From NCBI GenBank assembly GCA_947626445.1, contig CANQSC010000003.1:1-34616 (forward strand): 34,616 nt of DNA. The letters run 5' to 3'. This DNA comes from an uncultured Bacilli bacterium. GTDB lineage: Bacteria; Bacillota_I; Bacilli_A; RF39; UBA660. The first letter of the stretch is position 1. Each line of letters opens with the position of its first letter. The position numbers and the translations under genes were made by a program. The notes under the pieces are model-generated. The model worked only from the letters and a program-made list of their open reading frames with translations. It had not been told where the DNA came from and did no database searches. Below, in pieces: positions 1 through 31,560 of this stretch.

Positions 1-61
1 ATTTATACATAGCCTCCTACTATATATAAATATTAACATAATACCCCCCCCCCTATGTCAA
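1..61 (-). promoter_or_regulatory. Poly-G (G10) spacer promoter plus RBS for a gene starting just outside the left edge; near-copy of 3553-3613
   Basis: Minus strand: TTGACA (61-56), TA, G10 (53-44), TG-T-TAATAT, then AGGAGG. 55/61 identical to 3553-3613 by manual alignment. Confidence 0.75.
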
Positions 62-708
62 CAATTTTTTAGGCTTTCTACTAGAATTTGACTAAATTTA
101 TCAAGATATTCTTCACTCAAAAGTTTTTGTCTTTCCTTAACATTAGATAAAAAACCACATTCTATTAAAATTCCAGGAATTTTTAATCTACTATACATAT
201 ATGTACTATTAGGAATTTTTTTAATTTCTCTATTACTTTGTAAATTTTTATTTAAATAATCTTGTACTTTTAAAGCAATTTCTTTATTTAAAGAATTTTC
301 TTCATTATAAAATACTTGAGGACCATAGTAGCTACTATCTTTTAGATAATTAAGATGAATTGATATATAATAATTAGCCCTACTATTATTAATAATTTTA
401 ATACGGTGATCAAAATCACTTTTCTTACGGCGATTGGCATTAGGAGTTCCTAAATCATAATCACCATCACGAGTTAAAATAACTGTTGCCCCATTTTCTT
501 TTAATTTATCTCTTAATTTAAGACTAATTTTTAAATTAATATCTTTTTCATAAATATTTCCAACAACAGTTCCCGGATCAACACCACCATGGCCAACATC
601 AATGACATAAGTTTTATTACTTAAAGGACCACTTGCCAAAGAAGGATTAATATATAAAATAGAAGTTAAGATACAAAAACATAAAAAACTAATTAAATAT
701 TTTTTCAT
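58..708 (-). CDS. N-acetylmuramoyl-L-alanine amidase (Amidase_3, CwlD-like) with N-terminal signal/anchor
   Basis: Motifs IDVGHGGVDPG, EKDINL, ISIHLN and ILIECGFLSN; hydrophobic N-terminus. Confidence 0.9.
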   Translation of the reverse strand: MKKYLISFLCFCILTSILYINPSLASGPLSNKTYVIDVGHGGVDPGTVVGNIYEKDINLKISLKLRDKLKENGATVILTRDGDYDLGTPNANRRKKSDFDHRIKIINNSRANYYISIHLNYLKDSSYYGPQVFYNEENSLNKEIALKVQDYLNKNLQSNREIKKIPNSTYMYSRLKIPGILIECGFLSNVKERQKLLSEEYLDKFSQILVESLKNC

Positions 709-736
709 AAAATATTATATGAAAAAAGAAAAGCTT

Positions 737-1636
737 TTATTTACTTTTCTTTAGTTCTTTTAAAACTGCTAAAGAAGCAAGAGACCCATCACCTACAGCA
801 GTTGTTAACTGGCGCAAGGGCTTTAGACGAGCATCCCCAGCTACAAATATTCCAGCTGTTTTAGTATATACATCATCATGAGCAATAATATAGCCATTAT
901 CATCTAAATCAACAACATTATTAAAGATTTCATTTTCAGGTATTCTACCAATAGCAATAAATAAGCCATCTATTTTTAATTCTTGCATAGTTTCTTCATT
1001 GTCTTTAAGCATAATACTTTCTAAATATTCTTGACCATTTAAAGATACAATATTAGAGTTTAATATAAATTCAACATTAGACTTAGTTTTAAGTTCTTCT
1101 AAATTTTTATCTTCACCCCGAAATTCACTCCGACGATGAATTAAATAAACTTTATGAGCAAGATTAGATAAATATAAAGCATCTTCTAAAGCGGTATTTC
1201 CTCCCCCAATAACCGCAACAGTTTTTTCTTTAAAAAAGTTACCATCACAAGTAGCACAATAAGAAATACCTTTACCAATAAATTTAGTTTCATTAGGAAG
1301 ATTTAGTTTGCGATTAGAAGCACCTGTGGCAATTATAATTGTAGAACTTTGGTATTCATTTTTATCAGTAATAACTTTTTTATCATCACTTATTTTTAAG
1401 ACAGTTTCATATTTAATATCAGCACCTAAATTTTTAACTTGATTATATAAATTAGTTGCAAAATCATAGCCGCTTATTGACATAATACCTGGATAATTTT
1501 CAACTTTATTGGCATTAAGAATTTGCCCACCATAACTTTTAGCTTCTAACATTAAAACTTTTTTATTTGCTCTTAATAAATAAAGAGCACTTGTTAAGCC
1601 AGCAGGACCAGCACCAATGATAATAGTATCGTACAT
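737..1636 (-). CDS. trxB: Thioredoxin-disulfide reductase
   Basis: GAGPAG FAD motif, CATC redox motif, GGGNTA NADPH motif and HRR. Confidence 0.95.
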   Translation of the reverse strand: MYDTIIIGAGPAGLTSALYLLRANKKVLMLEAKSYGGQILNANKVENYPGIMSISGYDFATNLYNQVKNLGADIKYETVLKISDDKKVITDKNEYQSSTIIIATGASNRKLNLPNETKFIGKGISYCATCDGNFFKEKTVAVIGGGNTALEDALYLSNLAHKVYLIHRRSEFRGEDKNLEELKTKSNVEFILNSNIVSLNGQEYLESIMLKDNEETMQELKIDGLFIAIGRIPENEIFNNVVDLDDNGYIIAHDDVYTKTAGIFVAGDARLKPLRQLTTAVGDGSLASLAVLKELKKSK

Positions 1637-1714
1637 AAGTTAGTCACCTCATTACTTAGTATTTATAATTTTTATTTATTTAAACATTAAATAAATAAAA
1701 TATATATAAAGTAT

Positions 1715-1758
1715 ACAAAAAAATAATAAACATTGTCTATATTTATAAACAATGTTTA
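1715..1758 (-). terminator. Intrinsic terminator after surface-protein paralog 1
   Basis: Minus strand: stem TAAACATTGTTTATA / TATAGACAATGTTTA followed by a T-rich tract. Confidence 0.7.
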
Positions 1759-1770
1759 CACTATTAATAT

Positions 1771-3552
1771 TTAAAAAGCTAGAACGAGACGAAAGCTGTG
1801 ATAACTCGACGATGATCCATAATCCGTATGTAAATCGAAAATACCACTACCAGTTCCAAAGTCAATAATGCCACCACGTTGAACCCATGGACGGGCCGTG
1901 TAAACAATCCATGCTTCATCATTATACCAACTACCTACATTTCTTGATTGAATTAAATATTTCATACTTTGGAATGGGCCCATTTCTTTGGTCGCATCTC
2001 CTAATTTTCCTCTATTATACGACGTGTCACTGGTACTATAATCATATTTATCATAGAATCTTTCATCGGTTGGTAAATCTATTCCTTCTGTTACTTCTAT
2101 AATACTATGATTTACTTCCAATCCATTATCATTACATTCGGGACATGTTAATTTTCCCTTAAATCCTGAATTCCAAACATTATGTCGGCCTGATGATAAT
2201 TTGCCAGTGTGGCCATCTCCAGTGCTGTTGTCATCCATTCCACTCATCATATTTTCCCAAGCTCCCCCACTCATATCATAGATTCCACTATAATTATTTG
2301 TTGTACTGGCTACCACACTTGCTTTATTAAAATAATTGGTATTATAGTCACCATCAGCTCCAGGTGAAGAAACTCTTCCATATTCATTACAAGCTTCTGA
2401 ATTTACACTACATAATTCATTAGTGGTTGTATAGCCAATCGTTGGTTCTTGTCTTGCGGCATAGCCTGTTAAAAAATCATAATTATTATTGATCCTTATT
2501 TCTTGATGGCTTCCATACTTACTATGTTGTAAGTAAGCTACGGCTCCCCATTCACTATTTTTCATCATATGACTATTTAAATTTTGCTCATAATGTCTTC
2601 CTACTGTATAAGCTTTAGCTACTTGAATTTCTCGCCATGAATATACATTTGGCTTGATTATCACTTTGCTTGCTGCTTCTATTGCAGCTTTTTCATCTGT
2701 TGGATTTACTTGAGCAGCTGCAGTACTTCCTGCTCCATCATAACCGGTTTCAAATTTTCCTACCCATAGGCCATTCGTATCAAATGAGGTAAACGCTGGA
2801 TGCGTTAACCATTCTCCTTGTTTGTTTCCATTTTGAGGTTCAATATCTTTATTTTCAAATTCAACATTTATTATTTGTTCTTTATTTGTTTTGGTTGTTA
2901 AGCCATCATAGTTTCCTTCATCAAATATTTGATACCTGTATCTTGGGATCCAAACAAAATAACTTTCAATATCATTTTCTTCGATTGGTTGGTTTTCTCC
3001 TGGGTCTTCTACACCACTTCTTAAGATAACTGCATTTGCCCACTTCTGATTTTTATAATCATACCATTTTTCTTTGGCACTTGCTCTTGTAACATGACCA
3101 TTTTCTTCATTTATTATTATTGGTATTAATTTACTACTTAATACTGGATCTGCTCCATTTAATTCTCGATCGATATATTTATCATTAAAATATAAGGTAC
3201 ATTTGGTTTTACTTTTACTTAAATTCTTTATTAAGGGAGCCCATTCATCTTTATTCCATTCGATACTTGCTCCATTATCACATTCCCCATCGATAAACAC
3301 TAATCCTTCACTATTTTCTTTACTTGGCATTTCTTCTAATAATTCATTTCCTTTATAAAAAGCAAAATAAACATCACTATTACCAAAATAATCTACTTTT
3401 CCATTCATCATAGGAAAACTTACTTCTTCACTAAAACTTGCAAATGTTTTATATAACAAAAATGATATACTTATTAATACAATTAGACTTATACTTATTA
3501 AAATTATTTTTCTTTTCCTCTTATTTTTATCAACATATTTTTCGAGTTTCAT
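1771..3552 (-). CDS. Surface protein paralog 1 (intact): shared N-terminal anchor module plus C-terminal C-type-lectin/FGE-sulfatase-like domain, a DGR-target-like fold
   Basis: Likely start is ATG 3552 (MKLEKY...) after AGGAGG. Contains a TM segment, THPAF, GLWVGKFE, EWGAVAYL, GIYDMSGGAWE, PWVQRGG and terminal SFRLVL. Confidence 0.8.
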   Translation of the reverse strand: MKLEKYVDKNKRKRKIILISISLIVLISISFLLYKTFASFSEEVSFPMMNGKVDYFGNSDVYFAFYKGNELLEEMPSKENSEGLVFIDGECDNGASIEWNKDEWAPLIKNLSKSKTKCTLYFNDKYIDRELNGADPVLSSKLIPIIINEENGHVTRASAKEKWYDYKNQKWANAVILRSGVEDPGENQPIEENDIESYFVWIPRYRYQIFDEGNYDGLTTKTNKEQIINVEFENKDIEPQNGNKQGEWLTHPAFTSFDTNGLWVGKFETGYDGAGSTAAAQVNPTDEKAAIEAASKVIIKPNVYSWREIQVAKAYTVGRHYEQNLNSHMMKNSEWGAVAYLQHSKYGSHQEIRINNNYDFLTGYAARQEPTIGYTTTNELCSVNSEACNEYGRVSSPGADGDYNTNYFNKASVVASTTNNYSGIYDMSGGAWENMMSGMDDNSTGDGHTGKLSSGRHNVWNSGFKGKLTCPECNDNGLEVNHSIIEVTEGIDLPTDERFYDKYDYSTSDTSYNRGKLGDATKEMGPFQSMKYLIQSRNVGSWYNDEAWIVYTARPWVQRGGIIDFGTGSGIFDLHTDYGSSSSYHSFRLVLAF

Positions 3553-3613
3553 ATTTACATATAGCCTCCTACTATATATAAATATTAACACTTAACCCCC
3601 CCCCCTATGTCAA
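3553..3613 (-). promoter_or_regulatory. Poly-G (G10) spacer promoter of paralog 1, predicted phase variable
   Basis: TTGACA 3613-3608, G10 3605-3596, extended -10 TG-T-TAATAT (3587-3582), 20-bp spacer, AGGAGG 3570-3565. Confidence 0.75.
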
Positions 3614-3727
3614 GAAAAGCTTATTACTTTAGACCACTTAGTTATAAATTAAAAAATTAAAGTAATAAGAAATTGTTTAAAATGTGCAAATTATAATGCA
3701 TTTTATTTTACTCATTAATCATTATTT

Positions 3728-5507
3728 TTAAAAAGCTAGAACAAGACGAAAACTGTAGTAGCCAGCCGTACGACCGTCCGCGGCATTGAAATTGAACACG
3801 CCAGCTCCTGTACCATTGGTGTAAGCGCCACCACGTATGACCCATGGATTTCCCAAACCGACAAACCATGCCTCATCGTTATACCAACTTCCTACTGGTC
3901 TTGATTGAGTTAAATATTGCATAGTTTGAAACGGGCCTATTTCTTTGGTTGTATCTCCTAAAAAACCCCTATTATATGTTACACTACTTGTACTATAATC
4001 ATATTTATCATAATATCTTTCATCTGTTGGTAAAGCTATTCCTTCTGTTACTTCGGAAATATCATGATTTACTTCTACTCCTGGATCATTACATCCTAGA
4101 CAGGTTAATTTTCCTATAAATCCAGAATTCCACATATTATGGCGTCCTGCTGACAATTTACCGGTTTTGCCATCGCCAGTACTATTATCATCTATTCCGC
4201 TCATCATATATTCCCAAGCTCCTCCACTCATATCATAAATTCCACTATAATTATTTGTTGTACTTGATATTACACTTGCTTTATTAAAGTAATTGGTATT
4301 ATATGTTCCATCTTCTCCTGCTTTGTTTACTTCTCCATATTCATTGCAAGCATCAAGTGTATTACTACATAATTCATTTGTTCCTGTATAGCCTGTGGTT
4401 GGTTCATGAATTGCTGCATAACCGGTTAGATAATTTGAATTTATTGATTCTCACACTTGTATGACTTCCATATTTACTATGTTGTAAATAGGCTACTGCT
4501 CCCCATTCAGTGTTTTTCATCATATGACTATTTAATCTTTCTTCATAATGCAATCCAACTGTGTATGCTTTTGCTACTTGTATTCCTCGCCATGAATACA
4601 CATTTGGTTTAATTATAACTTTATTAGCTGCTTCTATTGAGGCTCTTTCATCAGCTGGATTTACTTCTGCTGCTTTAGTGCTTCCTGCTCCATCATACCC
4701 TGTTTCAAATTTGCCCACCCATATGCCATTTGTATTAAATGAGGTGAAGGCTGGATGCGTTAACCATTCTCCTTCTTTACTTCCATTTTGAGCTGCTACA
4801 TCTTTATTTTCAAATTCTATATTTATTATTTGTTCTTTATTTGTTTTGGTTGTTAAATCATTATAATTTCCTTCATCAAATATTTCATATCGATATCTTG
4901 GGATCCATACAAAATAACTTTCAATATCATTTTCTTCTATTGGCTCGTTTGCTCCTGGATCAGCTTTTCCATCTTTTAAAATAACTGCATTTGCCCATTG
5001 TTGATTTTCGTAATCATACCATTTTTCTTTTTCATTTGCTCTTGTAACACTTCCATTTTCTTCATTGATTGTTATTGGTATTAGTTTATCACTTAATACT
5101 GGATCTGTTCCTCTTAATATTTTTTCAGTATATCTTTCTTCAAAATACAAGCTACACTCGGTTTTTACACTTTTTAAATTTTTTATTAATGGTGACCATT
5201 CTTCATAATTCCATTCGATACTTGCTCCATTATCACATTCACCATGATCAAATACTAAGTTTTCTTTATTATCTTTCTGTGGCATTTCTTCTGTTAATTC
5301 ATTATTTTTATAAAATACAAAATAAATATCACTATTTCCAAAATAATCTACTTTGCCATTCATTATTGGAAAACTTACTTCTTCACTAAAACTTGCAAAA
5401 GTTTTATATAACAAAAATGATACACTTATTAAAGCTATTAGACTTATACTTATTAAAATTATTTTTCTTTTTTTCTTATTTTTATCTTCATATTTTTCAA
5501 GTTTTAT
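3728..5507 (-). pseudogene. Surface protein paralog 2, disrupted (ATG>ATA start and a frameshift at ~4442); same architecture as paralog 1
   Basis: The in-frame IKLEKYEDK begins with ATA at 5507. ORFs 4404..5414 and 3728..4231 join into a full paralog-1 homolog if 2 bp are restored in ATC AAT A AAT TCA. The downstream frame is open from 4441 to 3728. Confidence 0.8.
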
Positions 5508-5565
5508 ATGTAATCCCTTCTATCTTTATTTATTATGAATTGATAATAGTTTTATTATGTTCTCT

Positions 5566-5615
5566 ATTCTACTGTAGTATATAAATATATTATCTATTCT
5601 AATGTAGAATGTCAA
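5566..5615. promoter_or_regulatory. Promoter of paralog 2 (TTGACA-17-TAATAT, minus strand) overlapped by two 15-bp palindromic operators
   Basis: ATTCTAC-T-GTAGTAT (5566-5580) and ATTCTAA-T-GTAGAAT (5596-5610), 30 bp apart. -35 at 5615-5610, -10 at 5592-5587. Confidence 0.7.
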
Positions 5616-5658
5616 GATAGAGTTTTCAATGTTAATATCTTTTTAAGGAAGGATATTC

Positions 5659-5895
5659 ATGAATGAAAGTAAGATTATTTTTAAATTAAAAAAGATTATG
5701 GATGAAAAAAAGATGAGTAAAAATCATCTTTGTAAATTAACTGGTTTAAGATTTGAAACTGTTCAAGGATATTATAAAGGAAATATTTCTAGAGTTGATT
5801 TATATGTTCTATCTTTATTATGTAAAACTCTTGATTGTCGTGTAGAAGATTTAATTGAATATCAAGATACTAAAAAAGAAAAACAATTACAATAA
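5659..5895 (+). CDS. XRE/Cro-C1 family helix-turn-helix transcriptional regulator
   Basis: 78 aa with LKKIMDEKKMSKNHLCKLTGL...LCKTLDCRVEDLIEY; RBS AAGGAAGG. Confidence 0.9.
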   Translation: MNESKIIFKLKKIMDEKKMSKNHLCKLTGLRFETVQGYYKGNISRVDLYVLSLLCKTLDCRVEDLIEYQDTKKEKQLQ

Positions 5896-9155: not shown

Positions 9156-9222
9156 ATTGACCTCCATTGTGTTTTTTATTTCTTTTTGTTATAATAACAC
9201 ATATGAAGGTAGGATGAAAAGA

Positions 9223-10533: not shown

Positions 10534-10546
10534 GTATTTTTTTAAC

Positions 10547-11143: not shown

Positions 11144-11144
11144 A

Positions 11145-19016: not shown

Positions 19017-19262
19017 CTAATTTATTTTTTGATTAATACTTGGTAAAACAATATTATTAATTTTTTTATAATTGTTTTCATTAATATTTAAATATTTTTT
19101 TAATGTATCTTTTTCAATAATGGTATTATTTAATTTAACAGTATCATTCATTTCATTTATTAGTTTTTTATGAATAATGCTTAATTCTCCTAAATTATGA
19201 TTTAATTTAATAACTAATTGTTGTAAAATTTGATACTTTTTTTTAGTTGCTTCATCTATCAT
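19017..19262 (-). CDS. Small helical protein, WXG100-like accessory candidate
   Basis: 81 aa of amphipathic helices, translationally coupled within the T7SS cluster. Confidence 0.55.
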   Translation of the reverse strand: MIDEATKKKYQILQQLVIKLNHNLGELSIIHKKLINEMNDTVKLNNTIIEKDTLKKYLNINENNYKKINNIVLPSINQKIN

Positions 19263-19552
19263 AAATCACCTATATTTTCAAGTATACTTTCTGTTTCTTT
19301 AACTTGTTTTTGATATTTACTTATATTTTTTTCTAAGACAATAACATTATTTTGAAAATTACGATTTATAACCTGTAAATTTTTAATTAAATTTATTTCA
19401 AAATTATTTATTTTATTTACATTTGTAGATTTATAAATGCTATTTATCTGACTATTTTTATTTAATGATTCAATATTTAGTAAACATTCTTTTTGATAAA
19501 ATTTCATTTTATTTAAATTTAACTTAAGTAATGCTTCATTTAATATTGCCAT
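19259..19552 (-). CDS. WXG100-like small helical protein (central YxS)
   Basis: 97 aa, helix-turn-helix pattern with central IYKS, T7SS context. Confidence 0.55.
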   Translation of the reverse strand: MAILNEALLKLNLNKMKFYQKECLLNIESLNKNSQINSIYKSTNVNKINNFEINLIKNLQVINRNFQNNVIVLEKNISKYQKQVKETESILENIGDL

Positions 19553-19567
19553 TTTATCTTATCCTCT

Positions 19568-20128
19568 CTATAAGTAATTTATATATTCTAATTCTTTAAT
19601 AATTCGATTTTCATATTTAGATACAAGACTATTTATTTCAATTTCTTTTCTTTCAATATTTTTTATGGTATTTTTAACGTTATAATATATCTTTTTTATA
19701 CTTTGTTGATTATTTACTAAATCAGTTTTAATATTTAAAATTATTTCTTTTTCGGTTGGGCAAAAACTTAAATCCATATTGTTAATTAAATTTATAGAAT
19801 CAGCAATTTGATTTAAATATTTTTCAAAGATATTAAATAAAGAATTTTTGTTATCTTTTAAATAATAAATTTGTTTAGCAATTGGTTCATATTTAAAAAC
19901 TATACTTTTAAATATTTCATTTAATTCTTTTAAATCTAAAATAACTTTGTTTGATTCATTTTTTTGATAATTAATTTGATCTAAATATAATTTTGAATGT
20001 TCGTCTTGCCAGCAATCCATAGCTTGATTTAAGGCATTATAAAAATTCAAATAATTTAATTCATAAGAATCAATTATTTGTTTAATTTGTAAACTTTGTT
20101 TTTTTAATAGTTCTACGTCAATTCTCAT
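19568..20128 (-). CDS. WXG100-like protein (central WQD) with helical extension
   Basis: MRIDVELL start and CWQDEHS at the hairpin position. Confidence 0.6.
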   Translation of the reverse strand: MRIDVELLKKQSLQIKQIIDSYELNYLNFYNALNQAMDCWQDEHSKLYLDQINYQKNESNKVILDLKELNEIFKSIVFKYEPIAKQIYYLKDNKNSLFNIFEKYLNQIADSINLINNMDLSFCPTEKEIILNIKTDLVNNQQSIKKIYYNVKNTIKNIERKEIEINSLVSKYENRIIKELEYINYL

Positions 20129-20143
20129 AATTGCCTCATATTC

Positions 20144-20183
20144 TCTTAAATAAGTAAAATAAATTTATTTTACTTATTTAAGA
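20144..20183. repeat. Perfect 40-bp palindrome
   Basis: TCTTAAATAAGTAAAATAAA|TTTATTTTACTTATTTAAGA. Confidence 0.9.
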
Positions 20184-20202
20184 AAAAACAAATACGTTTT
20201 TT

Positions 20203-20847
20203 CTAATCATTTCCTGCAAATGCTTGAGCAATTTTACCTTCAGTATTTTTATAATTGGTAACAGTAGTATTTATTGCACTTTTTAATTGAGAACTACAAC
20301 CAGTAAAAGTTGTATTAATATTGTTCTTAATCGTATTTAATGATGCTAGTAAATTAGCTGCTGATTCGCCACCAATAAAACCACAAGTTTGAACAGCAGT
20401 TACAGCACGACTTAAGGCACCTTGAGCTGCACCATTAATAATTTGTAAACTATTAGTAGTTGTATTAGCAGCAGATAAGTCAATACCTCTTACCCCATTA
20501 ATGTTTTCTTTAATTACAGAAGTATTAAGTTCTTTACGTGTTGAGGTATAAGATGGTGCTGAAAAAGTAGCGCCAGTTTGATTAGCCCAATTTTGGCCAG
20601 CTGTTTTCATAGAATTAACAACACTTGTAAAAATTTTTTCAGCATCTTTTGTTAATTTATCCATTGCTGGTTTAACTGAGTCATTAAAATATTTTTGTGC
20701 ATTGCTGCATGCCCATAAATTTCCCATTTTGTCAACAAATTGTGATTGAAACTTTCCACATAAAATATCCATTGTGTCATTAGCTGCTGTAATAAAATTA
20801 TTCATTGATGTTCTAACAATTGCAGGATCAAAACCCATTAAAGCCAT
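20203..20847 (-). CDS. Tandem (double) WXG100-like protein, probable major T7SS substrate
   Basis: Start MALMGFDP after AAAGGAG. First half has WAC, second half has FIG; C-terminal YKNTE matches YxxxD/E. Confidence 0.65.
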   Translation of the reverse strand: MALMGFDPAIVRTSMNNFITAANDTMDILCGKFQSQFVDKMGNLWACSNAQKYFNDSVKPAMDKLTKDAEKIFTSVVNSMKTAGQNWANQTGATFSAPSYTSTRKELNTSVIKENINGVRGIDLSAANTTTNSLQIINGAAQGALSRAVTAVQTCGFIGGESAANLLASLNTIKNNINTTFTGCSSQLKSAINTTVTNYKNTEGKIAQAFAGND

Positions 20848-20891
20848 TTTTAGCTCTCCTTTCACTTGATAGTTTACCCTATCACAATTTA

Positions 20892-20951
20892 ATTATAATA
20901 AACTTTCTTTATTTTGCCAATTAAAGATAATTTTTTTGACGTTTTTTGACA
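20892..20951 (-). promoter_or_regulatory. Internal sigma-A promoter for the WXG100/effector genes with an upstream tandem direct repeat
   Basis: TTGGCA (20920-20915)-17-TATAAT (20897-20892). TGTCAAA and CGTCAAA at 20951-20945 and 20941-20935. Confidence 0.6.
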
Positions 20952-20952
20952 C

Positions 20953-21213
20953 TTATTTAGTAAATATAAATAATTCCGTACCATTTCTTATATCCGTATA
21001 AATAACTACTTCATTATTGTGATAAACTCGACAATTATCCTTATTTAATAAAATGTATTCTTCATTATTTGCAAATATAGTCCCCGTTAAATCTATTATT
21101 GATTTAATTAACATTTTTTTAATTTTCCAAATTACTTCATTTACTGGTAAAAATAAATCAAAAGTTTCATTTAAAGTTGGAACAGTTAATTTTATTAAAA
21201 CTTTATTTTCCAA
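20953..21213 (-). CDS. esaB: EsaB/YukD-like ubiquitin-fold T7SS protein
   Basis: 86 aa with FDLFLP...IRNGTELFI, directly downstream of essC. Confidence 0.75.
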   Translation of the reverse strand: MENKVLIKLTVPTLNETFDLFLPVNEVIWKIKKMLIKSIIDLTGTIFANNEEYILLNKDNCRVYHNNEVVIYTDIRNGTELFIFTK

Positions 21214-21215
21214 AA

Positions 21216-24200
21216 TTATTCCTCCTCTTTAGATATAAAATCAATTAATTTACATAAAATTGGGGTACTCTCTGATATAATATATCCCATTTGATTATTA
21301 TAATCTTTAGTCATATCTCTAGTAATATTTGATAAATGAAATAAAGTTTGATCCGCAATTCCTTTACCTACCCATAAGCCGTCATTTAAACTAAAAGTGC
21401 TAGTAAACCATTGCTCATAAGCATAATTTTTAACTTTGTTAGCACCATCTATAATAAGAGGATAAATTTTTTCATAAGTTTTTAATAAATTAAAGAAATT
21501 GGTTAATTTATCAGAATCAACTTTACTTATAAATTTATCAAGATTATAGATAATAATTATACCTTTTAAAGTATTTTTTTGATTAATTAAATTATTCATA
21601 TATTCTATAATACTATCCATTAATTGATCAAAATTTTCTGTGTAATAATTAGGATAAGTAATTTTATTTAAACTTAAGTCTTTACTAGAATCAATAATAA
21701 TTAATTGAGTATTTTTAAGATGACTTATTTCTTCTATTAAACTTAACGTAAAATTTTTAAGATTACCAATTTTATTAGATGTTATAATATTACCTAAATT
21801 AGTAGAAAAATCTAAAGAAAGAATTTCTAAATCATTTTTACTTATAGCAATTGGTAAAGATGTGACATCACTAAGATGTTCTTCAATATCTTTCAAACGA
21901 ATTATATTTGGTAAAGTCGGAATTTTACGAGCTTTGTTTTTATTTAAATTTTGTTGTTCTATGACAAAATCGTTAATTTCTTTAGTCATTTTAGAATCTA
22001 ATGGGAAAGGTGTGGCTGTTTGAAACTCATATACTTCATCAGTTCTAAATAAGCCTCGGCCAAAAATATTTTTAGGAATAATTTTAGTATGAACATCAAA
22101 TATAGAACGATAATCATTATCATCTTTTAATTTAAAGGCTATAATATTTGGACAATTTTGAGATATTTTAGTATGAACAGAATTAACTTGGTTAGCTGTT
22201 ATAATAAAGATTATTCCATAATGTTCTGAATCTCTTATTAATTCTGGTAATTCATCATATAAATCTTGATTAGCTTCATAAATACTATCATAATTATTCA
22301 TAATAATAGCTTTAATTGGTAACTTCTTTTCGTTTTTTTGATTATATAATTCAAAATCACCATTATAGTCTGATAAAATCTTTTTACGTTTTTTGATATC
22401 TTCTTTAATTAACTTCCATAAATTATTATATTTTTCGTCTTCAAGGGCTAAGACAAGACCACCAACATGAGGTAATTTAGAATATTTGACTAGTGATTCA
22501 GAACCATAATCAATTATATAAAAATTAATATCATCAGCTTGATAATTTTTAGCAGTTTCATAAATAATTGTATTTAATAAATTTTCATTTTCGCTACCAT
22601 CGTTTCCATAAATAATAGTATTGCCATTTTTTAAATAAGAATAGGTAACTAAATTTTGTTGTTGATATTGTGGAGCATCATACTCACCTATTATAATTTT
22701 TATTTCATCGGTTTTTTGATAATGATATTTATTTTCTAGAGAAGACACTAAAACATCAGATGGCAAACTTTCTAACCATAATCTTTTAGCTTTCATTCCT
22801 AAATTTTGCGATACCGAAATGATATTTTTTAAGATGGCTGTAATTTGTTCACCTTCAGCTTGAACATGATTTTGACTTGAAGCTTGAATGTTTTTAATAA
22901 AAGTGCCACTTTCATCGATAAAATTGATACTTCTATCTACTTGTTTAATAAGTTTTTCACTAGGATAATAATTAGCTCCAGCATAGGCAGATTGGCCTAA
23001 AACAAAATATTCGTCAAAACCAACTTGTAAATAAAATCTTCCGGTTTGCTTTATGGCCGCTGCTTCAGGTCGTTTTAGCATTTCTCTACTATCTTGTTCA
23101 TCACTTACTTTTAAACAAACCCGAAAACGAGTATTAGACCAAATTTGATCATTGACAACACCACTTGGTTTTTGAGTTGCTAAAATAAGATGAACCCCTA
23201 AACTACGACCAATACGCGCGACACTAATTAAATCATCCATAAAGTCAGGTTGATTAACTTTTAATTCAGCAAATTCATCGCATATGATAAATAAATGAGG
23301 AATTGGTGTATCTAATCGTCCTTCATTATAATATCTTTGATATTTATATATATCTATAGTACTTTCACTTAATTTATCTCTTGCTTCATTAAAAATAGTT
23401 TGTCTTCTTTTAATTTCACTATTAATACTTACTAATGCTCGGTCAATTTCTGACTTATCTAAATTGGTTATTGTTCCCGCTAAATGAGGTAAAACTAAAT
23501 TAGTAGTTTTATTTTCAAAGGCATAGGCTAAGCCCCCACCTTTATAGTCTATTAAAATAAATGCTACTTCTTCAGGACTATAATTAATTGCCAAAGATAA
23601 AATATAAGTAATAATAAATTCTGATTTACCTGAACCAGTAGTACCAGCTATTAAACCATGAGGTCCATGAAATTTTTCATGTAAATCCAAATATAATAAA
23701 TCACCATGTTCATCTACACCAACTTCAGCTTTTAAACTTAATGTTGCATCATTTCTCTGCCATCTATTTAAAATATTTAATTGCTCTACTTTACCTACTT
23801 TTTCCATCTCTAAAAAATTAATACTATTTGGTAATTGACTTAAATTATTTTCAAATTCAATAGGAATATTAGCTAAAGCTTTAACGATGTTACTCATGTT
23901 AAGGTTATAATGAATTTCATCAGTAAAACTACTTTTTTCTTGATTTTCATAAGCATTAATTAAAATCTCTGAGGTGCGGTCACCAATGGTAATAAAATTA
24001 TTACATTTACTTGGTAATTTACTCAATTTATTTTCAATAAACACAATACTAAAACCAAGATTTACATCTAATTCAGTTAAATCTTTAACAAAATCAAAAC
24101 GTTTAAATTCGTCTATTTCATCCATGATGATAAAATAATAAGGCTTAGGAGTATAATTTTTATTACTACTTTTAGCGATCCTTGAATTAAGTTCACTTTC

Positions 24201-25757
24201 TAGGTAATCAGCAATGGTTTTAGCACTTTCTTTATTAGTTGAAAAAAATCTTAATGTTTTTTCGTCATTAAAGTTATGATTTAAATATTTTAAGTATTCC
24301 CATAAATATGCGTTTTGCTCATTAGTAAATAAAACAATTTTGACATCTTCATATGTGTAAAAAGTTAAGATTTGTAAAAGTAAATTATTAACAAAGGCAA
24401 TAGTTTTTCCGGGAATACCCATAATTGCTGTTAGTTTGTGTTCATAAAATGAATAACCTAACGGAACATTTGGAATAAATTTATACTTTTCAATTAGATT
24501 TTCAGCTTGTTCTCTTAATTCATTTTCATCAACTTTAAAATCTTCTTCATTATATTCTACTTTAACATCTAGGGGTTGATTGCCAATTCCTACTCTAAGA
24601 GTTAGAAAATCACTTTGGTCAAGTCTTTTATCCCAAAAGTTCATGCTTTTATTGGCAATTGTGGAAAGACAATCTTCTATGGTTAGTAAATTTTCTAAAA
24701 TAATTACTTTTTGAAGTTCCTTTTCATCCGCGAAGGTTTTTTCTTTTTTGCTTAAATATTTATTGTATTTTTCAATGATTTCTTTATGGTGTTTCTTTTG
24801 TTGACGGCGATTATAAAATTGGGTTAATAATGGCCAAACTAACATGGATATTAACATAGCACTACTGGTAATTAATTGAGGCCAAGATTCGGCCATGGAT
24901 GTAGTTTTTCTAGTAATGCTAGTTATGGTACTTACTAGCATTGCTGCTCCCGTTACGCCCATTGTAAGCATTGGGCCAATTACTAAAATTAAAGGAAGTT
25001 CATTTTTGCTTTCTTCAGGTGGGGGACTTATTTTAATTGTTTTCGATTCAATTGTTCTTCTAAGTCTTGGCGCTTTAGAATAATAATCAACGGGTTGATA
25101 TAAATTGTTATCTTTTAATTCAATGTTTTTAGGAGGTTCTTCATTAACATAAACATGTGGTTTGATATTTGTTTTACCATTAATAATATTTAAATCTTTT
25201 TCAGAAGTTATAATTAAAAAGAAAGATTTTAAAAAGATTAACCTTATACCATAGATGTCTATTTCATCACCAATTTTTAAATAGGCACTCTTTTTTGAAT
25301 AAACTTTTTGATTAATGTATAAATTATTTTGACCTTTATTAATTATTTGAAGGCCTTGATTACCATTATTTAATTCAAATAAAATATTTTTAAAATATGG
25401 GCATTTATTTTTGATATTAACATTATTTTCGTTGCCAATTAAAAGTTCTAAGTTTGAAGGATATTCATAAGTTAATACCTTTTGAGTTAAAGGACTAGTT
25501 ACATAAATTAAAAATAATTTTTGATCTCTTTTAATAACATAGTATTCATTAACATTTAAAGCAACTTTTTTTACTGAGATTTGATTGCTATAAATATCCA
25601 TATCTTCTAAAGCATATAAAACCCATTTGCCATTTTGAGCTTCTATATTAATTAAACTATTTTTGTTTTTTTCATAATCAAAAGAATAACTACCAGAAAC
25701 GCTAGTAGGTAAACGAAAATTAATAAGTCGATCATTTAAATATAAAGTTATTATCAC
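21216..25757 (-). CDS. essC: Type VII secretion FtsK/SpoIIIE ATPase EssC
   Basis: N-terminal FHA-like region, two TMs, GPHGLIAGTTGSGKSE, IDYKGG, CDEFAEL and ARIGRSLGVHLILATQKP. Start is GTG 25757 or 25766. Confidence 0.93.
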   Translation of the reverse strand: MIITLYLNDRLINFRLPTSVSGSYSFDYEKNKNSLINIEAQNGKWVLYALEDMDIYSNQISVKKVALNVNEYYVIKRDQKLFLIYVTSPLTQKVLTYEYPSNLELLIGNENNVNIKNKCPYFKNILFELNNGNQGLQIINKGQNNLYINQKVYSKKSAYLKIGDEIDIYGIRLIFLKSFFLIITSEKDLNIINGKTNIKPHVYVNEEPPKNIELKDNNLYQPVDYYSKAPRLRRTIESKTIKISPPPEESKNELPLILVIGPMLTMGVTGAAMLVSTITSITRKTTSMAESWPQLITSSAMLISMLVWPLLTQFYNRRQQKKHHKEIIEKYNKYLSKKEKTFADEKELQKVIILENLLTIEDCLSTIANKSMNFWDKRLDQSDFLTLRVGIGNQPLDVKVEYNEEDFKVDENELREQAENLIEKYKFIPNVPLGYSFYEHKLTAIMGIPGKTIAFVNNLLLQILTFYTYEDVKIVLFTNEQNAYLWEYLKYLNHNFNDEKTLRFFSTNKESAKTIADYLESELNSRIAKSSNKNYTPKPYYFIIMDEIDEFKRFDFVKDLTELDVNLGFSIVFIENKLSKLPSKCNNFITIGDRTSEILINAYENQEKSSFTDEIHYNLNMSNIVKALANIPIEFENNLSQLPNSINFLEMEKVGKVEQLNILNRWQRNDATLSLKAEVGVDEHGDLLYLDLHEKFHGPHGLIAGTTGSGKSEFIITYILSLAINYSPEEVAFILIDYKGGGLAYAFENKTTNLVLPHLAGTITNLDKSEIDRALVSINSEIKRRQTIFNEARDKLSESTIDIYKYQRYYNEGRLDTPIPHLFIICDEFAELKVNQPDFMDDLISVARIGRSLGVHLILATQKPSGVVNDQIWSNTRFRVCLKVSDEQDSREMLKRPEAAAIKQTGRFYLQVGFDEYFVLGQSAYAGANYYPSEKLIKQVDRSINFIDESGTFIKNIQASSQNHVQAEGEQITAILKNIISVSQNLGMKAKRLWLESLPSDVLVSSLENKYHYQKTDEIKIIIGEYDAPQYQQQNLVTYSYLKNGNTIIYGNDGSENENLLNTIIYETAKNYQADDINFYIIDYGSESLVKYSKLPHVGGLVLALEDEKYNNLWKLIKEDIKKRKKILSDYNGDFELYNQKNEKKLPIKAIIMNNYDSIYEANQDLYDELPELIRDSEHYGIIFIITANQVNSVHTKISQNCPNIIAFKLKDDNDYRSIFDVHTKIIPKNIFGRGLFRTDEVYEFQTATPFPLDSKMTKEINDFVIEQQNLNKNKARKIPTLPNIIRLKDIEEHLSDVTSLPIAISKNDLEILSLDFSTNLGNIITSNKIGNLKNFTLSLIEEISHLKNTQLIIIDSSKDLSLNKITYPNYYTENFDQLMDSIIEYMNNLINQKNTLKGIIIIYNLDKFISKVDSDKLTNFFNLLKTYEKIYPLIIDGANKVKNYAYEQWFTSTFSLNDGLWVGKGIADQTLFHLSNITRDMTKDYNNQMGYIISESTPILCKLIDFISKEEE

Positions 25758-25839
25758 ATCAATCACCTTAATTATTCTCTATTAAATATTTTAACAAATA
25801 AAAAAGATAAAATAAAGAAGAATTATGTTGGTTTGATGG

Positions 25840-26547
25840 TTATTTTAAGATTTTCTTTTTTATTTTATCGTAAGAACGAGGATATTTACTATCGGTTAAG
25901 GATTTTTTTTGAATATCTAAGATAGTACGATGCCCAGCGTTATTAGGTAAGGTGAATTCTTCAGTTGAAATAATTGATGATGAAAGTTCTTTTAAAGCAC
26001 CTAAAGAATTATTTTGTTCTTCTAAAGTTATATTAGCTTTCATAATTAGAAAGTGACCATTTACTTTTAAAGTAGGAATTCCTAATTCAAGCAAAATTCT
26101 TAATTCGGCAACTGCACGAGAAGTTATATAGTCAAATTTTTCACGATTATATCTTGCATAATCTTCAGCTCTTTCTTCTACTAATGTGACATTTTTTAAA
26201 TTTAATTTAGAAATACATTCCTTTAAAAATTTGATTTTTTTATTATTTGAATCTAATAAAGTAACTTGTAAATTAGGATAAACAATTGCTAAGATGAGAC
26301 CTGGAAAACCTGCTCCAGTACCAATATCTAATAAAGATTGATTAGTAAAATTAGTTACTTTGGAAAGCGTTAAAGAATCATAAAAGTGTTTTAAGTAAAC
26401 TTCATCAAGATTTTTAATAGCTGTTAAATTAGTGTGTTCATTATAAGAAAGTAAAAAATTAGCATATGTTTTTAATTGTTCTTGTTGGTCACTAGTTAAA
26501 TCAATATTTAATTTAGTTAATTCATTTATAAATTCATTTTCTTTCAT
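25840..26547 (-). CDS. rsmG: 16S rRNA m7G527 methyltransferase
   Basis: NLTAI, KHFYDSL, DIGTGAGFPG and SRAVA; follows mnmG. Confidence 0.95.
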   Translation of the reverse strand: MKENEFINELTKLNIDLTSDQQEQLKTYANFLLSYNEHTNLTAIKNLDEVYLKHFYDSLTLSKVTNFTNQSLLDIGTGAGFPGLILAIVYPNLQVTLLDSNNKKIKFLKECISKLNLKNVTLVEERAEDYARYNREKFDYITSRAVAELRILLELGIPTLKVNGHFLIMKANITLEEQNNSLGALKELSSSIISTEEFTLPNNAGHRTILDIQKKSLTDSKYPRSYDKIKKKILK

Positions 26548-28405: not shown

Positions 28406-28419
28406 TTTTAACACGTCCT

Positions 28420-29775
28420 TTATTTACCAAGACAAAATCTTTTAAAAATATTATCAATTAATTCATCTTCATAATATTCGCCAATAATTTTGCCTAAGTT
28501 TTCCCAAGCACTTTTAAGTTCAATGGTAAGCATATCAATCGGAATATTTGCTTCATTATCTTTAATAACATTATTGATATTATTTAAAGCCTCTTTAGCT
28601 AATGTAATTTGTCTAGTGTTTGACAAGTAATTTAATTTTTTAGATTCAAGATTTTCTAAGCCAAAATTATTAATGATTTGGTCTTTTAATTCTTCGATTC
28701 CTTCCTTTTTTATAGTGCTTCCTAAGATTATTGGTAATTTAGTTTTAATTGGTTCAAGCTTGGTTTCTAAATCAGTTTTATTAATGAAAACAAGATTGTT
28801 TTTAGTTTCAAGTTGTTTTAAAAGTTCTTCTTCTGCACTTGTTATTTTTTCATTATTATTTAAAACTAAAATAGTTATATCAGCTGATTTCATAATTTCT
28901 TTACTTTTTTCAACACCAATTTTTTCGACAACATCACTAGTATCTCTAATACCTGCTGTATCTATTAGGTTAAGTAAAATACCTTTATGAATTAAACTAC
29001 CTTCAATAGAATCTCTAGTGGTTCCAGATATATTAGTTACAATGGCTTTATCTTCTTCTAGTAAAGCATTTAATAGAGAGGATTTACCAACATTAGGTTT
29101 ACCAATAATCGCCACATTTATCCCCTTTTTGATTAATTCACCATTTTTAGATTCTTTAATAATTTGTTCTAATTCATTTTTTACTTCAGTTAATATTGGA
29201 GTAAGGTTTTCTTTAGTAATTTGTAGTTCATCAACATATTCAGGATAATCAATATTTACTTCAATATTAGATAATAAACCAACTAATTTTTCTCTTAAAG
29301 AAGTAATTAATTCAGTTGTTTTTCCGGTTAAATGATTCATGGCTAAAATTGATTGATTATCAGTTTGAGATTCTAATAAATCTTCAACTGATTCGGCTTC
29401 AAGTAGATTAATGCGACCATTTAAGAAAGCTCTTTTTGTAAATTCACCAGGTTCAGCAAGACGGGCTCCATGTAAAAGTAAAATTTCTAAGATTTTATTA
29501 GTAACAGCATATCCTCCATGACAATTAATTTCCACAATATCTTCTAAAGTATAAGTTTTAGGGGCAAACATAACTGATACTAAAACTTCATCAATCTTTT
29601 CATTATTATCTACAATATAACCATAATGAATAGTATGAGATTTACAATTGTTAATTTTTTTATTAGAAAAAACTTCACTTAAAATATTAAGTGATTCTCT
29701 ACCACTCATTCTAATGATATTTATTGCTCCAACTCCAATATTATTAGTAGAAATAGCCACAATAGTATCGTCCAT
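28420..29775 (-). CDS. mnmE: tRNA modification GTPase
   Basis: GEFTKRAFLNG, GKPNVGKSSLLN, GTTRD, DTAGIR, NKTD and terminal FCLGK. Confidence 0.97.
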   Translation of the reverse strand: MDDTIVAISTNNIGVGAINIIRMSGRESLNILSEVFSNKKINNCKSHTIHYGYIVDNNEKIDEVLVSVMFAPKTYTLEDIVEINCHGGYAVTNKILEILLLHGARLAEPGEFTKRAFLNGRINLLEAESVEDLLESQTDNQSILAMNHLTGKTTELITSLREKLVGLLSNIEVNIDYPEYVDELQITKENLTPILTEVKNELEQIIKESKNGELIKKGINVAIIGKPNVGKSSLLNALLEEDKAIVTNISGTTRDSIEGSLIHKGILLNLIDTAGIRDTSDVVEKIGVEKSKEIMKSADITILVLNNNEKITSAEEELLKQLETKNNLVFINKTDLETKLEPIKTKLPIILGSTIKKEGIEELKDQIINNFGLENLESKKLNYLSNTRQITLAKEALNNINNVIKDNEANIPIDMLTIELKSAWENLGKIIGEYYEDELIDNIFKRFCLGK

Positions 29776-29800
29776 GTTTTCACCCCACTTACTGCAAGGT

Positions 29801-29829
29801 ATTATAGCAAACTAAAAAGAAATTGTCTA
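29801..29829 (-). promoter_or_regulatory. mnmE promoter
   Basis: TAGACA-17-TATAAT with extended TG. Confidence 0.65.
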
Positions 29830-29831
29830 TA

Positions 29832-29999
29832 ATAACAAAGACCTATACTCACAAAGAATATAGGTCTAGAGTAAAGGTAGGTCTCCCAGTTCCTACATGT
29901 ATTCTTTCAGATTAACTTACTCAAACTTGTTACCAAGTGTAGTGCAAGAAGAATAATTTACACCCTCTTTACTAATATCAAATAATTTTTTACTTTGAT
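29832..29999 (-). ncRNA. Candidate structured small RNA (~165 nt), family unidentified
   Basis: Own promoter TTGAAA-18-TATAAT (30034-30005), several stems including one with a GTAA tetraloop, and a terminator-like hairpin at 29839-29867. Confidence 0.5.
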
Positions 30000-30059
30000 A
30001 TACTATTATAAACACACTATTTTTATTTTTTCAAATATAACCAAATGTTAGTAAGCAAA

Positions 30060-30084
30060 GCGGGGTCCGCAGGCGACCCTCCGT
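30060..30084 (-). other. GC-rich imperfect hairpin just downstream of paralog 3 (possible DGR target-recognition hairpin)
   Basis: GGGTC-GCCTGCG-GACCC within an unusually GC-rich tail, with no U-tract. Confidence 0.4.
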
Positions 30085-30093
30085 CCAACGAAC

Positions 30094-31505
30094 CTAACTC
30101 GCAAGCTCAGTTTTATATGGCGTCCCTTTTTCACCGTTACCGTCTATTATTTTTACTGACGATGATAGATATGCGACTGGCTGAACCCCGTAAGCATTGC
30201 CCGCGCGGTAGTCGCTGACATAGCCAGACGAAAGCACAAGGAACACATCGGAAGCATCAGTAGAATCCGGCGATGGTGTCATTGTCCATGAATAACCACT
30301 ACTTGGTTTTAACCAATCATTATCTTTACAACTTCCACTATTATATTTATTCATACTTTTTCCTAAACATGTTTCTCTTACTTCTCCTCCTACTGCATAC
30401 CCAAAGTCACTTGCATACATTAATCCTATATTTCCTTCCCATGTTGTGGTTCTTTCTACTTCATCATTACAATCTGTTCCTCTATAACTTGAACATAGTT
30501 CCTTTCCATTATGACTTCCTCTTTCTGCTTCATATGTTGCTTTTGCTGTCCATTCTGAATCATTATAAGTTGCAAATGTTCCTGTATTCCATCTTACTTT
30601 TGCTATTTTGTTCTTTGCTTCTTCACTTATTCCACTACTTTATTTACTTCATTTTTACCGCTATAACAACTTCCACTTCCTCTGTTCCAATACAAACTTC
30701 CTCCGATTGTTGGTGTTCCACTATATACGGTATTGGGATTTAATAATTTCATTACATCTGCCTCGCTCCACTCATTTACTCCATAACCATTATTTATTCC
30801 TGATGCACTACTATCCCAACTATAATTTCCTATACTTTCTTCTCTTATTATTTTTACCAAACTTTCTTGTTGTCCTCCATTATCTATATTGGTTATGTTA
30901 TTCATGACTCCTATGATTCGCCATAATATTGGATTACCATTACTATCTCTATCTCCTATATCTATATAGTTATTTACTGTTTCATTTGCTCCTACATATC
31001 TTATATTTGCGTCACTTGTATCATCAACCCATAAATTTGTTGTATCTAAATTGGCATTAGTTTTGATACACTCTGATGCTCCTGCTCCGGATTGTCCACA
31101 TTTTACAACTGCTTCATCATAAGTAGGAACATATTCTTCAAAATGCAAACTACATTTAGTCTTTACTTTGTTTAAACCTTTTACTAATGGAGCCCATTCT
31201 TCACTATTCCATTCGACACTTGCTCCATTATCACATTCAGCGTAGTCAAATACTAAATTTTCTTCATTATCTTTCTGAGGCATTTCTTCTAATTCTTTAT
31301 CACCATGATAAAAAGCAAAATAAATATCACTATTACCAAAGTAATCTACTTTTCCATTCATAATAGGAAACTCTGCACTTTCCGAAAAGGACGCAAAGGT
31401 TTTGTATAGAAGTAATGATACACTTACTAATACTATTACACTTATACTTATTAAAATAATTTTTCTTTTTTTCTTGCTCTTATCCTCATATTTTTCTAGC
31501 TTCAT
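30094..31505 (-). pseudogene. Surface protein paralog 3, frameshifted at ~30640: shared N-terminal module plus a different (DUF6273-like) C-terminal domain
   Basis: The first ~125 aa match paralogs 1 and 2, followed by LWRIIG and VKII. After the frame change come SSGISEEAKNKIAKVRWNTG...IGLMYASD...WTMTP...GVQPVAYL...GNGEKGTPY. Confidence 0.8.
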
Positions 31506-31528
31506 ATAATCACCCTATTCTTAGAGTA

Positions 31529-31560
31529 ATTATAGCAACTAACCCCCCCCCCTAAGTCAA
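31529..31560 (-). promoter_or_regulatory. Poly-G (G10) spacer promoter of paralog 3, predicted phase variable
   Basis: TTGACT 31560-31555, G10 31552-31543, TG-C-TATAAT (31534-31529), 20-bp spacer. Confidence 0.78.

Follow-up and report, generated by a model that had tools for sequence, protein, structure and literature searches.

The window analysed here is a stretch of 34,616 nucleotides, the complete 34.6-kb contig C3 of the assembly G000 of an uncultured, small-genome gut bacterium of the Bacilli. The assembly comprises 1,172,205 bases in 119 contigs (82% complete, GC 0.26, shortest contig 2,528 bp; contigs below 2.5 kb were dropped from the bin) and the genome is estimated at about 1.2-1.4 Mb. 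In what follows G000 is the host genome, G001 and so on are congeners, C-numbers are contigs and L-numbers are loci. Three genes of the window, here called A, B and C, and a fourth promoter at its end belong to a dispersed family of putative surface proteins; a common N-terminal module is joined to one of two C-terminal domains, the tip of each domain resembles the variable region of a diversity-generating retroelement (DGR), and most members stand behind a promoter with a run of ten guanines (G10). An earlier note, made from the window alone, had proposed such a family, with switching by slippage, domain exchange behind a constant anchor and retroelement mutagenesis of the tip. Its observations were right and understated, and the family proved larger than it had claimed once the genome and its relatives were searched with the N-terminal module; its interpretation was supported in part.

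All of the family features in the window lie on the reverse strand. Gene A (1771..3552) is an intact open reading frame (ORF) of 593 amino acids, with a basic N-terminal stretch, a predicted helix, a beta-sandwich module and a C-terminal domain, termed type A, of predicted C-type-lectin/FGE-like fold. The 125-amino-acid N-module common to the family is encoded by 3178..3552, and a relic of a variable region lies at 1778..1910. Gene B (3728..5507) is a type-A pseudogene; it has ATA in place of ATG, no G-tract promoter upstream and a frameshift near 4443, where two tblastn high-scoring pairs abut (5132-4443 and 4444-3731), and its variable region is at 3735..3867. Gene C (30094..31505), which sits between jag and mnmE, joins the N-module to a different C-terminal domain, type C, and has a frameshift near 30630-30640 and a variable region at 30170..30290. 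By tblastn the N-modules of B and C are 78% and 74% identical to the 125 amino acids of gene A, which confirms the shared module of about 125 residues that the earlier note had described. The C-terminal domains of A and B are 73-81% identical; that of gene C has no sequence match to them. The tips are indeed GC-rich, with values of 0.45 for A and 0.52 for B (130 nt) and 0.5-0.6 for C (40-nt windows) against 0.26 for the genome. Translation with the alternative code table 4 (TGA read as tryptophan) left genes B and C broken and produced spurious ORFs, and table 11 was kept.

The promoter of gene A (3582..3613) reads TTGACA (3613-3608), TA, G10 (3605-3596), TTAAGTGT and TAATAT (3587-3582). That of gene C (31529..31560) reads TTGACT (31560-31555), TA, G10 (31552-31543), TTAGTTGC and TATAAT (31534-31529), with TGn before the -10 hexamer; both spacers are 20 bp. 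The third copy, at 1..61, consists of TTGACA (61-56), TA, G10 (53-44), TATTATGT, TAATAT and a leader that runs to base 1 and so points off the contig, one base short of the position that ATG occupies in identical promoters on other contigs. Identical promoters precede genes beginning MKLEKY on C33 and C53, in agreement with the fourth family member that had been proposed beyond the window. The stop codon of an N-acetylmuramoyl-L-alanine amidase gene (58-708, reverse strand) falls within the TTGACA (56-61) of this promoter. Each tract of the window thus follows TTGAC[AT]TA and lies 8 nt ahead of TAATAT or TATAAT, so that TA, ten guanines and 8 nt make up the 20-bp spacer. A G8 pattern matches nine times in the window, counting overlaps, against 0.07 expected, and none of 100 shuffles attained nine.

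A tblastn search of G000 with the modules of genes A and C gave about 25 N-module matches, about 25 type-A loci and about 13 type-C loci, counts that are approximate because many of the loci are at contig ends. Family loci cover 49,863 of the 1,172,205 bases, at least 4.25% of the assembly. Of 18 further genomes of the genus, 17 contain the N-module, in 3-44 matches apiece; in 12 genomes from other families of the class it had no match. When a single genome of every species was scanned, 424 stretches encoding relatives of gene A emerged; the 78 loci that were kept come from metagenome-assembled genomes (MAGs) of uncultured Bacilli or 'Tenericutes' from rabbit, mouse, human (Hadza) and chicken gut. 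The type-A domain is also found on alternative N-termini, namely a variant module beginning MNKNEKII or MKKKII and a distinct N-terminus on C13. In distant relatives (L034, L036, L037, Hadza-gut MAG; L088 at 380 and 2289) a pilin-like hydrophobic N-terminal helix precedes the type-A lectin domain, and L088 has a G10 tract, without TTGACA, upstream of the prepilin-like start (…KAFTLIELLAVIVI). The family N-terminus may be a cleaved signal peptide. Its ...KTFASFSEE segment bears what we take to be a resemblance to SipW-type signals; gene A gave no NCBIfam match to a SipW-dependent (TasA-type) signal at E <= 1, the 82%-complete G000 gave no TIGR02228 match to a SipW-type signal peptidase at E <= 0.01, and a signal of this type was rejected for gene A.

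An AlphaFold (AF2) model of gene A based on 33 relatives (pLDDT 80) has a helix at residues 11-37, a beta-sandwich at 61-124 and a large C-terminal domain. The top Foldseek match is TaqVP (5vf4, E 3e-8), followed by Mtd and FGE, the FGE matches being weak (E 5.6e-3 and above); a sequence profile of gene A also reaches PDB 5vf4 (E 0.0075). Type C was modelled on the nearest intact paralogue, L141 (G000:C37, pLDDT 63), of which residues 140-473 are equivalent to window positions 30097-31085. These residues match residues 32-305 of the Thomasclavelia ramosa IgA peptidase 9qa6 (Z 14.5, 224 residues, rmsd 3.7), and further matches, at Z 3-4.6, are to many C-type lectin domains and to the C-terminal domain of Legionella Lcl. 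Inspection of gene C by eye revealed no HExxH motif, and the match to the peptidase therefore concerns its non-catalytic part. The two C-terminal types, earlier called unrelated, are so in sequence alone; the models predict that both tips are carried by scaffolds of C-type-lectin-like fold.

A search of G000 for reverse transcriptases (RTs) with RVT_1 gave four matches at three places, one on C13, two fragments on C14 and one on C59. With QGGLISP and a maturase-like tail, the RTs of C13 and C14 belong with those of group II introns; the former lies at C13:1-1173 and the latter is in broken pieces at C14:4422-4918. In the RT of C59 the motif typical of DGRs, IGNYTSQ, stands at residue 189, and YMDD at 221. 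It closes a cassette (DGR-1) that runs from the end of a type-A gene (variable region 1-110) through a GC-rich spacer, a template repeat (TR, 268-420) rich in AAC and AAT codons, a small MutS-I protein (MutS_I, E 5e-13) and a bAvd ORF of 126 amino acids (Pfam E 3.4e-22) to the RT. The hallmarks of a canonical DGR are present in it: the RT motif, an Avd beside the RT, and a TR and variable region that differ almost only at adenines. RT orthologues are intact in seven congeners (G003, G015, G049, G043, G037, G045 and G039) among the 41 genomes searched, G000 included, and full of stop codons in three (L118 in G011:C62, L120 in G002:C23 and L121 in G018:C24); the three congeners with a broken RT keep 18-37 N-module matches. 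At L011 a G11 run abuts the middle of a MutS-I-like gene, a junction that suggests deletion of the template.

The C59 template aligns without gaps to 25 type-A gene ends, the variable region being the last 130 nt or so of the gene, ending ...FRLVLA. Across these tips, mismatches to the TR at adenine sites are saturated at 15-23 of 35; those at other sites range from 0 to 49 of 95, and GC declines from 0.58 to 0.34. The series begins with the tip of C59 itself, with no non-adenine mismatch in 95 and 19 at adenines (16 at adenines and one at a cytosine in a wider alignment), and continues with C58a (1/95; 20 at adenines), C78 (2/95; 15), C67 (4/95; 15), C56 (6/95), C53 (7/95) and C110 (9/95). 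Gene B follows at 10/95, with 17/35 at adenines (p 9e-6), and gene A at 29/95, with 21/35 (Fisher p 0.004); the most diverged type-A tips reach 49/95. Young paralogue pairs differ at 46-83% of adenine sites and at 2-12% of the other positions of the tip. The pair C78 and C67, for example, differs at 24/450 positions in the gene body, at 2/95 non-adenine sites and at 23/35 adenine sites. It is clear that adenine-specific hypervariation has followed duplication among the young paralogues.

The tips of A and B both lack the 3' match to the template. Gene A has retained the shared 18-nt 3' stretch CAGTTTCCGGCTTGTTCT with four mismatches, with neither the GC end nor the hairpin, and in a pairwise matrix it has at least 22 non-adenine differences from the nearest other tip. 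A second template behind the tips of A or B is unlikely, since neither has a partner tip in this matrix, although one may be missing from the assembly. The hairpin GGGGT/ACCCC found 3' of the C59 tip itself folds weakly (z -0.72 against shuffles). Judged by these alignments, gene A does not look like a current target of DGR-1, its tip resembling a relic, and the partly decayed tip of gene B looks like that of an older, former target in a dead gene. Of the DGR-like tips that the earlier note had postulated, the variable regions are therefore real, and the search for a DGR RT and TR led to the C59 cassette; in A and B, however, they appear as relics.

The tip of gene C appears to belong to a different type of retroelement. 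The congener G001 has a cassette of the same layout (template, MutS-I-like (MutS_I) protein, Avd-like ORFs and an RT in pieces) that opens with an adenine-rich copy of the type-C tip, and this copy aligns without gaps to the tip of gene C. The G001 template was used solely to mark adenine sites; between the tip of gene C and that of the C40 paralogue, 19 of 29 template-adenine sites differ, against 4 of 62 others. This concentration at adenine sites implies a single template, belonging to their own species, as the source of both tips. The GC-rich tail 3' of the stop codon of gene C (30050..30096), unique among the type-C copies of G000, recurs after the orthologous gene in L063, another relative; about 60 nt beyond the tail there, the tip is repeated in a partly template-like form. 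The tail folds no better than shuffled sequences (z 0.25) and was rejected as a hairpin. By its layout, gene C resembles a target that lies beside the template of a second DGR, the remainder of which would be elsewhere, unassembled or lost.

Family-wide, the promoter of genes A and C is a common design. G000 has 29 tracts of eight or more guanines (23 G10, 2 G9, 1 G11 and 3 G8) and eight of G6-7. The longer tracts are followed by an MKLEKY-type start codon in 14 cases, by the same leader cut by a contig end in two, by variant N-termini on type-A genes in two, by an inverted-repeat element in three and by other sequences in eight (a BspA-like leucine-rich-repeat protein, a signal-peptide protein, a gene start interrupted by a group II intron, and a G8-AGA class). 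At least 16 of the 29 thus precede family genes. Conversely, among 16 N-modules with the start present, 12 have the G10 promoter, two have the element instead, one (gene B) has none and one is cut by a contig end. The association of poly-G promoters with the family, which had been suspected from the window, accordingly holds throughout the genome. At the three window sites, and in 19 promoters genome-wide with spacers of 19-20 bp, a homopolymer of at least eight separates clear -35 and -10 hexamers. When the genome was searched for TTGAC[AT]-Nx-TATAAT or TAATAT, sites without a G tract peaked at x = 17 (30 sites), and sites with a tract were found at x = 20 (16) and x = 19 (3). The 78 relative loci have 41 tracts, all on the strand of the gene (28 G10, 9 G9, 2 G11, 1 G8 and 1 G7), and keep the 20-bp spacer despite differing tract flanks (1+10+9, 2+10+8 and 3+10+7). 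The closest species to share the gene C locus is G015, and there the tract ahead of the orthologue is interrupted, GGGAGGGGAGG. A spacer of 20 bp is poor by the usual rules for sigma-70 promoters, and under these rules the common G10 state is predicted to be weak or off. From this anatomy, that is the 20-bp spacer and the range from G8 to G11 among copies, we infer that ON/OFF switching by slippage may occur.

Some further features accompany these promoters. About 15 nt upstream of the -35 hexamer, about half of the G10 promoters carry a box, (A)GTGGTCTAAAAT (window 3626-3640; C58, C23, C33, C37, C25 and C83), which could be a candidate binding site or a shared 3' flank of tandem family genes. 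A second promoter class, TTGAC[AT]TA-G8-AGA…GCCTTATAAT, has a longer gap to the -10 hexamer and no family gene after it (C38:6082-6089, C51:7622-7629 and C87:1-8; L016:6766). On C11 (13313-14840) a G10 without a -35 hexamer precedes a 492-residue protein with BspA-like leucine-rich repeats, recognised by eye, and an N-terminus like that of the C13 type-A gene; the G10 design is thus not limited to the lectin family. On C16 (about 270-343, reverse strand) a G10 promoter of the second of the two subtypes described below and an ATG are followed directly by GTGCGACAGTG..., the 5' end of a group II intron.

Promoters and leaders of the family fall into two subtypes, TAATAT with a AGGAGGCTATGTATAAAT leader and TATAAT with a GGTGATTAT leader, and each occurs with both C-terminal types. 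Furthermore, the N-modules do not cluster by C-terminal type: those of the type-C genes on C1 and C33 share 87-89% identity with the module of C58a, a type-A gene, but only 80-82% with the modules of C3_C (gene C), C37 and C29, which are of type C. This distribution fits the exchange of domains proposed from the three window genes. With regard to position, jag is directly followed by mnmE, with no gene C, in G008, G007 and G003, and in the three relatives in which the anchor was found, of five searched, the amidase ends differently and no promoter follows it. Comparison of these sites indicates that whole promoter-gene units move to new chromosomal positions.

At six contig ends of G000 a repeat of at least 75 bp, reading …GCCTTTAAATACTGGCTTTTTTT AAAAATGTACACATAACTAAAATGTACACATAAGGT and containing a terminator-like hairpin, lies exactly between G10-T and the -10 hexamer. 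Three are left junctions (C45:1-110, C83:1-112 and C29:1-60), in the order promoter, G10-T, palindrome (TTATGTGGAC/GTCCACATAA) and repeat; three are right junctions (C105:2848-2922, C29:13780-13856 and C8:1-76), in the order repeat, TAATGT, -10 hexamer and gene. The palindrome TTATGTGGACGTCCACATAA is on the promoter side, the 10-bp motif TTATGTG[GT]AC occurs four times in the ends of the element, and the ...GGT at its terminus resembles the last bases of the tract. All six contigs end at the same base within the repeat. The interior of the element was absent from the G000 bin (contigs of 2,528 bp and above), from G002, G011 and G015, and from two metagenome scans (no match in each). The left junction pattern was found in 4 of 47 genomes of the genus. 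In G002:C15 (L092:1060-1140) there is a 70-bp, internally deleted copy in a promoter that is uninterrupted in G000. The element is either a transposon, such as a miniature inverted-repeat transposable element, with a striking site preference, or one state of an inversion switch.

The reading that we consider probable is that the window holds three of about 25 genus-specific, exported or membrane-anchored proteins and a fourth promoter, in a family that combines DGR-diversified lectin tips, a G10 contingency promoter and the mixing of modules. Each member would consist of the N-module (basic stretch, hydrophobic helix and small beta-sandwich) and one of two C-type-lectin-like ligand-binding domains, and each domain type would be the target class of its own DGR, with an adenine-rich template copied into the last 130 nt or so with errors at adenines. 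The type-A retroelement of C59 would serve, now or recently, a handful of paralogues; A and B would be former targets whose tips are drifting back to AT-richness, and the tip of C, like that of C40, would have been written from a type-C template outside the assembly. Most members are presumed to be driven by a sigma-70-like promoter with G10 in a 20-bp spacer, 3 bp above the genome norm, which may act as a contingency switch, the common G10 state being weak or silent and slippage altering the output. Recombination would mix promoter and N-module types with C-terminal types and relocate promoter-gene units. A number of observations weigh against one or other part of this reading. Of the window genes only A is intact; B and C are broken, although the single frameshift of C may be an assembly error. 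Gene A has no Pfam match at E <= 0.01, PF03781 (FGE-sulfatase) included, and no NCBIfam match, and its location at the surface would follow from the N-terminal helix and from analogy of fold. No type-C template or RT was found in the 82%-complete G000 assembly. In the young paralogues the non-adenine divergence of the tip is about that of the gene body, so these figures speak for adenine-specific hypervariation and not separately for homogenisation by the template, and the full 3' match to the template (…CTCGCCGA) with a short GC hairpin is confined to the tips of C59 and C110. Fifteen public DNA runs, all in the form of assembled contigs, and no RNA run were found to contain the sequence. Mapping of four of them to 29000-32600 gave short unitigs with paralogues piled up and nothing on tract, frameshift or tip; the chosen likeness of 85% worsened the pile-up. 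An excess of mismatches at template-adenine sites is present in all three window tips (21/35 against 29/95 in A, 17/35 against 10/95 in B), and further templates may be missing from an incomplete assembly, so that A, B and C could all be live DGR targets and phase-variable at present, as first proposed. We regard this as very improbable. Retrohoming rewrites the entire tip and would erase the non-adenine differences, of which A and B have many; the tip of A is at least 22 such differences from every other tip, gene B has neither start codon nor promoter, and both A and B lack the 3' end of the template.

The G10 tract is strikingly uniform (23 of 29 tracts in G000, 28 of 41 in relatives), and it would have to lose three guanines before the spacer measured 17 bp; these facts are equally compatible with a fixed part in regulation or recombination. 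It is thus possible that G10 is a fixed cis element of a family-wide regulon, as a rigid spacer, a regulator site or a docking site for the element, with control exerted by a protein or by insertion and excision. The 20-bp spacer kept with different flanking bases, the upstream GTGGTCTAAAAT box in about half of the promoters, the position of the terminator-bearing element exactly between G10-T and the -10 hexamer at three left and three right junctions, and the mimicry of the tract end by its ...GGT would all accord with such a role. Against it, near-identical promoters differ by having G8, G9 or G11, homopolymers of this length are intrinsically unstable, no regulator was identified, and the element is present in 4 of 47 genomes as opposed to the much wider spread of the G10 design. 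Alternatively, the junctions may represent two states of a site-specific inversion or shufflon that links a fixed G10 promoter to alternative genes, inversion rather than slippage being the main ON/OFF switch. There are three kinds of junction (promoter with gene, promoter with palindrome and inverted end, and end with gene) that have in common a core of GGT, A/T-rich bases and TTATGT; the halt of six contig ends at one base of the repeat and the fourfold recurrence of TTATGTG[GT]AC would also be expected. This seems unlikely to us, as the interior is unassembled, with contigs below 2.5 kb having been dropped, no recombinase was seen, the 3+3 junctions compare with at least 16 plain promoters, few congeners have the element, the deleted G002 copy resembles a transposon footprint and the two metagenome scans gave no match. 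Somewhat speculatively, G10-T could be in addition a landing or crossover site of an element that reversibly uncouples the -35 hexamer and G10 from the -10 hexamer and gene, which would stack three control systems; we give this little credence. Were it true, the family would be subject to tract length, to a mobile or invertible element that splits promoters, and to two retroelements rewriting two lectin tips behind one exchangeable N-module. We know of no description of a targeted promoter-splitting switch of this kind.

The surroundings of the three genes are those of an ordinary chromosome. The neighbours are yidC, jag, mnmE, mnmG and rsmG (on the rnpA side), a thioredoxin-reductase-like gene (trxB-like), amidases, LysM proteins and a P-type ATPase; the amidases and LysM proteins indicate a walled cell, and the family genes are scattered among housekeeping genes, which also rules out a prophage origin of the window. 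An Rfam scan of the window gave no family at gathering score. At 19017-25766 (reverse strand) a 1516-residue FtsK/SpoIIIE-family ATPase adjoins several small ORFs (81-97 amino acids) without Pfam matches, which could, on the evidence of the ATPase domain, be a candidate type VII-like secretion cluster.

In a genome of some 1.2-1.4 Mb, one family that joins two textbook routes of surface variation, with module exchange in addition, takes up at least 4% of the DNA. Such an investment points to strong and changing selection on binding or recognition, for instance by host glycans, immunity or phage. The roughly 25 tips graded away from one template would form a natural time series of the recruitment, use and abandonment of DGR targets, and congeners with a pseudogene RT and a persisting family offer a comparative system for what the retroelement adds. 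The G10 design, conserved in gut MAGs from rabbit, mouse, human and chicken, is a candidate contingency switch in a lineage without cultured members.

Each layer of this arrangement is of a known kind, and the combination appears to be new within the literature searched, as represented by titles and the openings of abstracts. That material contained no description of DGR tips together with a family-wide poly-G promoter and modular exchange of N- and C-terminal parts, nor of a family of such size in a small genome, a graded decay series or a promoter-splitting element. The retroelement layer is most like TaqVP of Thermus aquaticus (5vf4) and Mtd of BPP-1, with which it has in common a terminal variable region of about 130 nt, adenine-specific mismatches, a bAvd, an RT with [I/L]GxxxSQ and the fold. 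TvpA of Treponema denticola is also a DGR variable protein with a C-type lectin/FGE-like fold. Unlike these, the proteins described here have no Pfam FGE-sulfatase match and a single target type is represented by about 25 paralogues within a genome of some 1.2-1.4 Mb; the paralogues are mostly at graded stages of decay, each with its own poly-G promoter, and a second target class with its own type of DGR stands behind the same N-module.

Repeats in promoter spacers act as switches in porA (poly-G) and opc (poly-C) of Neisseria meningitidis, vlp (poly-A) of Mycoplasma hyorhinis and Vmm (TA repeats) of Mycoplasma mycoides. Here too a simple repeat between the -35 and -10 hexamers of a surface-protein gene sets the length of the spacer, and in the mycoplasmas, as here, a multigene family is concerned. 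The differences are that the modal spacer is 20 bp, 3 above the optimum, where the ON and OFF states of those systems are 1-2 units apart; that the tract is unusually uniform across paralogues and species, its switching being putative; and that the host, a gut bacterium of the Bacilli, has a cell wall and is uncultured. The poly-G loci of Campylobacter jejuni are alike in that a low-GC genome has a few dozen tracts of G8-G11, far above chance, at genes for surface structures; there, however, most tracts fall within the reading frames of unrelated genes, whereas here one family with a single promoter design accounts for nearly all of them. In mpl of Mycoplasma penetrans and vsa of M. pulmonis a short inverted-repeat element likewise lies beside several family promoters, with a terminator before the disconnected genes; in the present family orientation switching is hypothetical and no recombinase was found, and the element occupies only a minority of the promoters and was met in 4 genomes of the genus out of 47. 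Work by Paul et al. in 2017 is said to have described DGRs with multiple targets in uncultured small-genome lineages of the candidate phyla radiation (CPR) and DPANN, and that of Macadangdang et al. in 2022 reportedly concerns DGR-diversified pilus proteins of gut Bacteroides. With these the present system shares one retroelement that serves several remote targets, and a reduced genome or a gut host. The likeness to the Bacteroides pili extends to the Hadza-gut relatives, which carry the same C-terminal domain on a pilin-like N-terminus.

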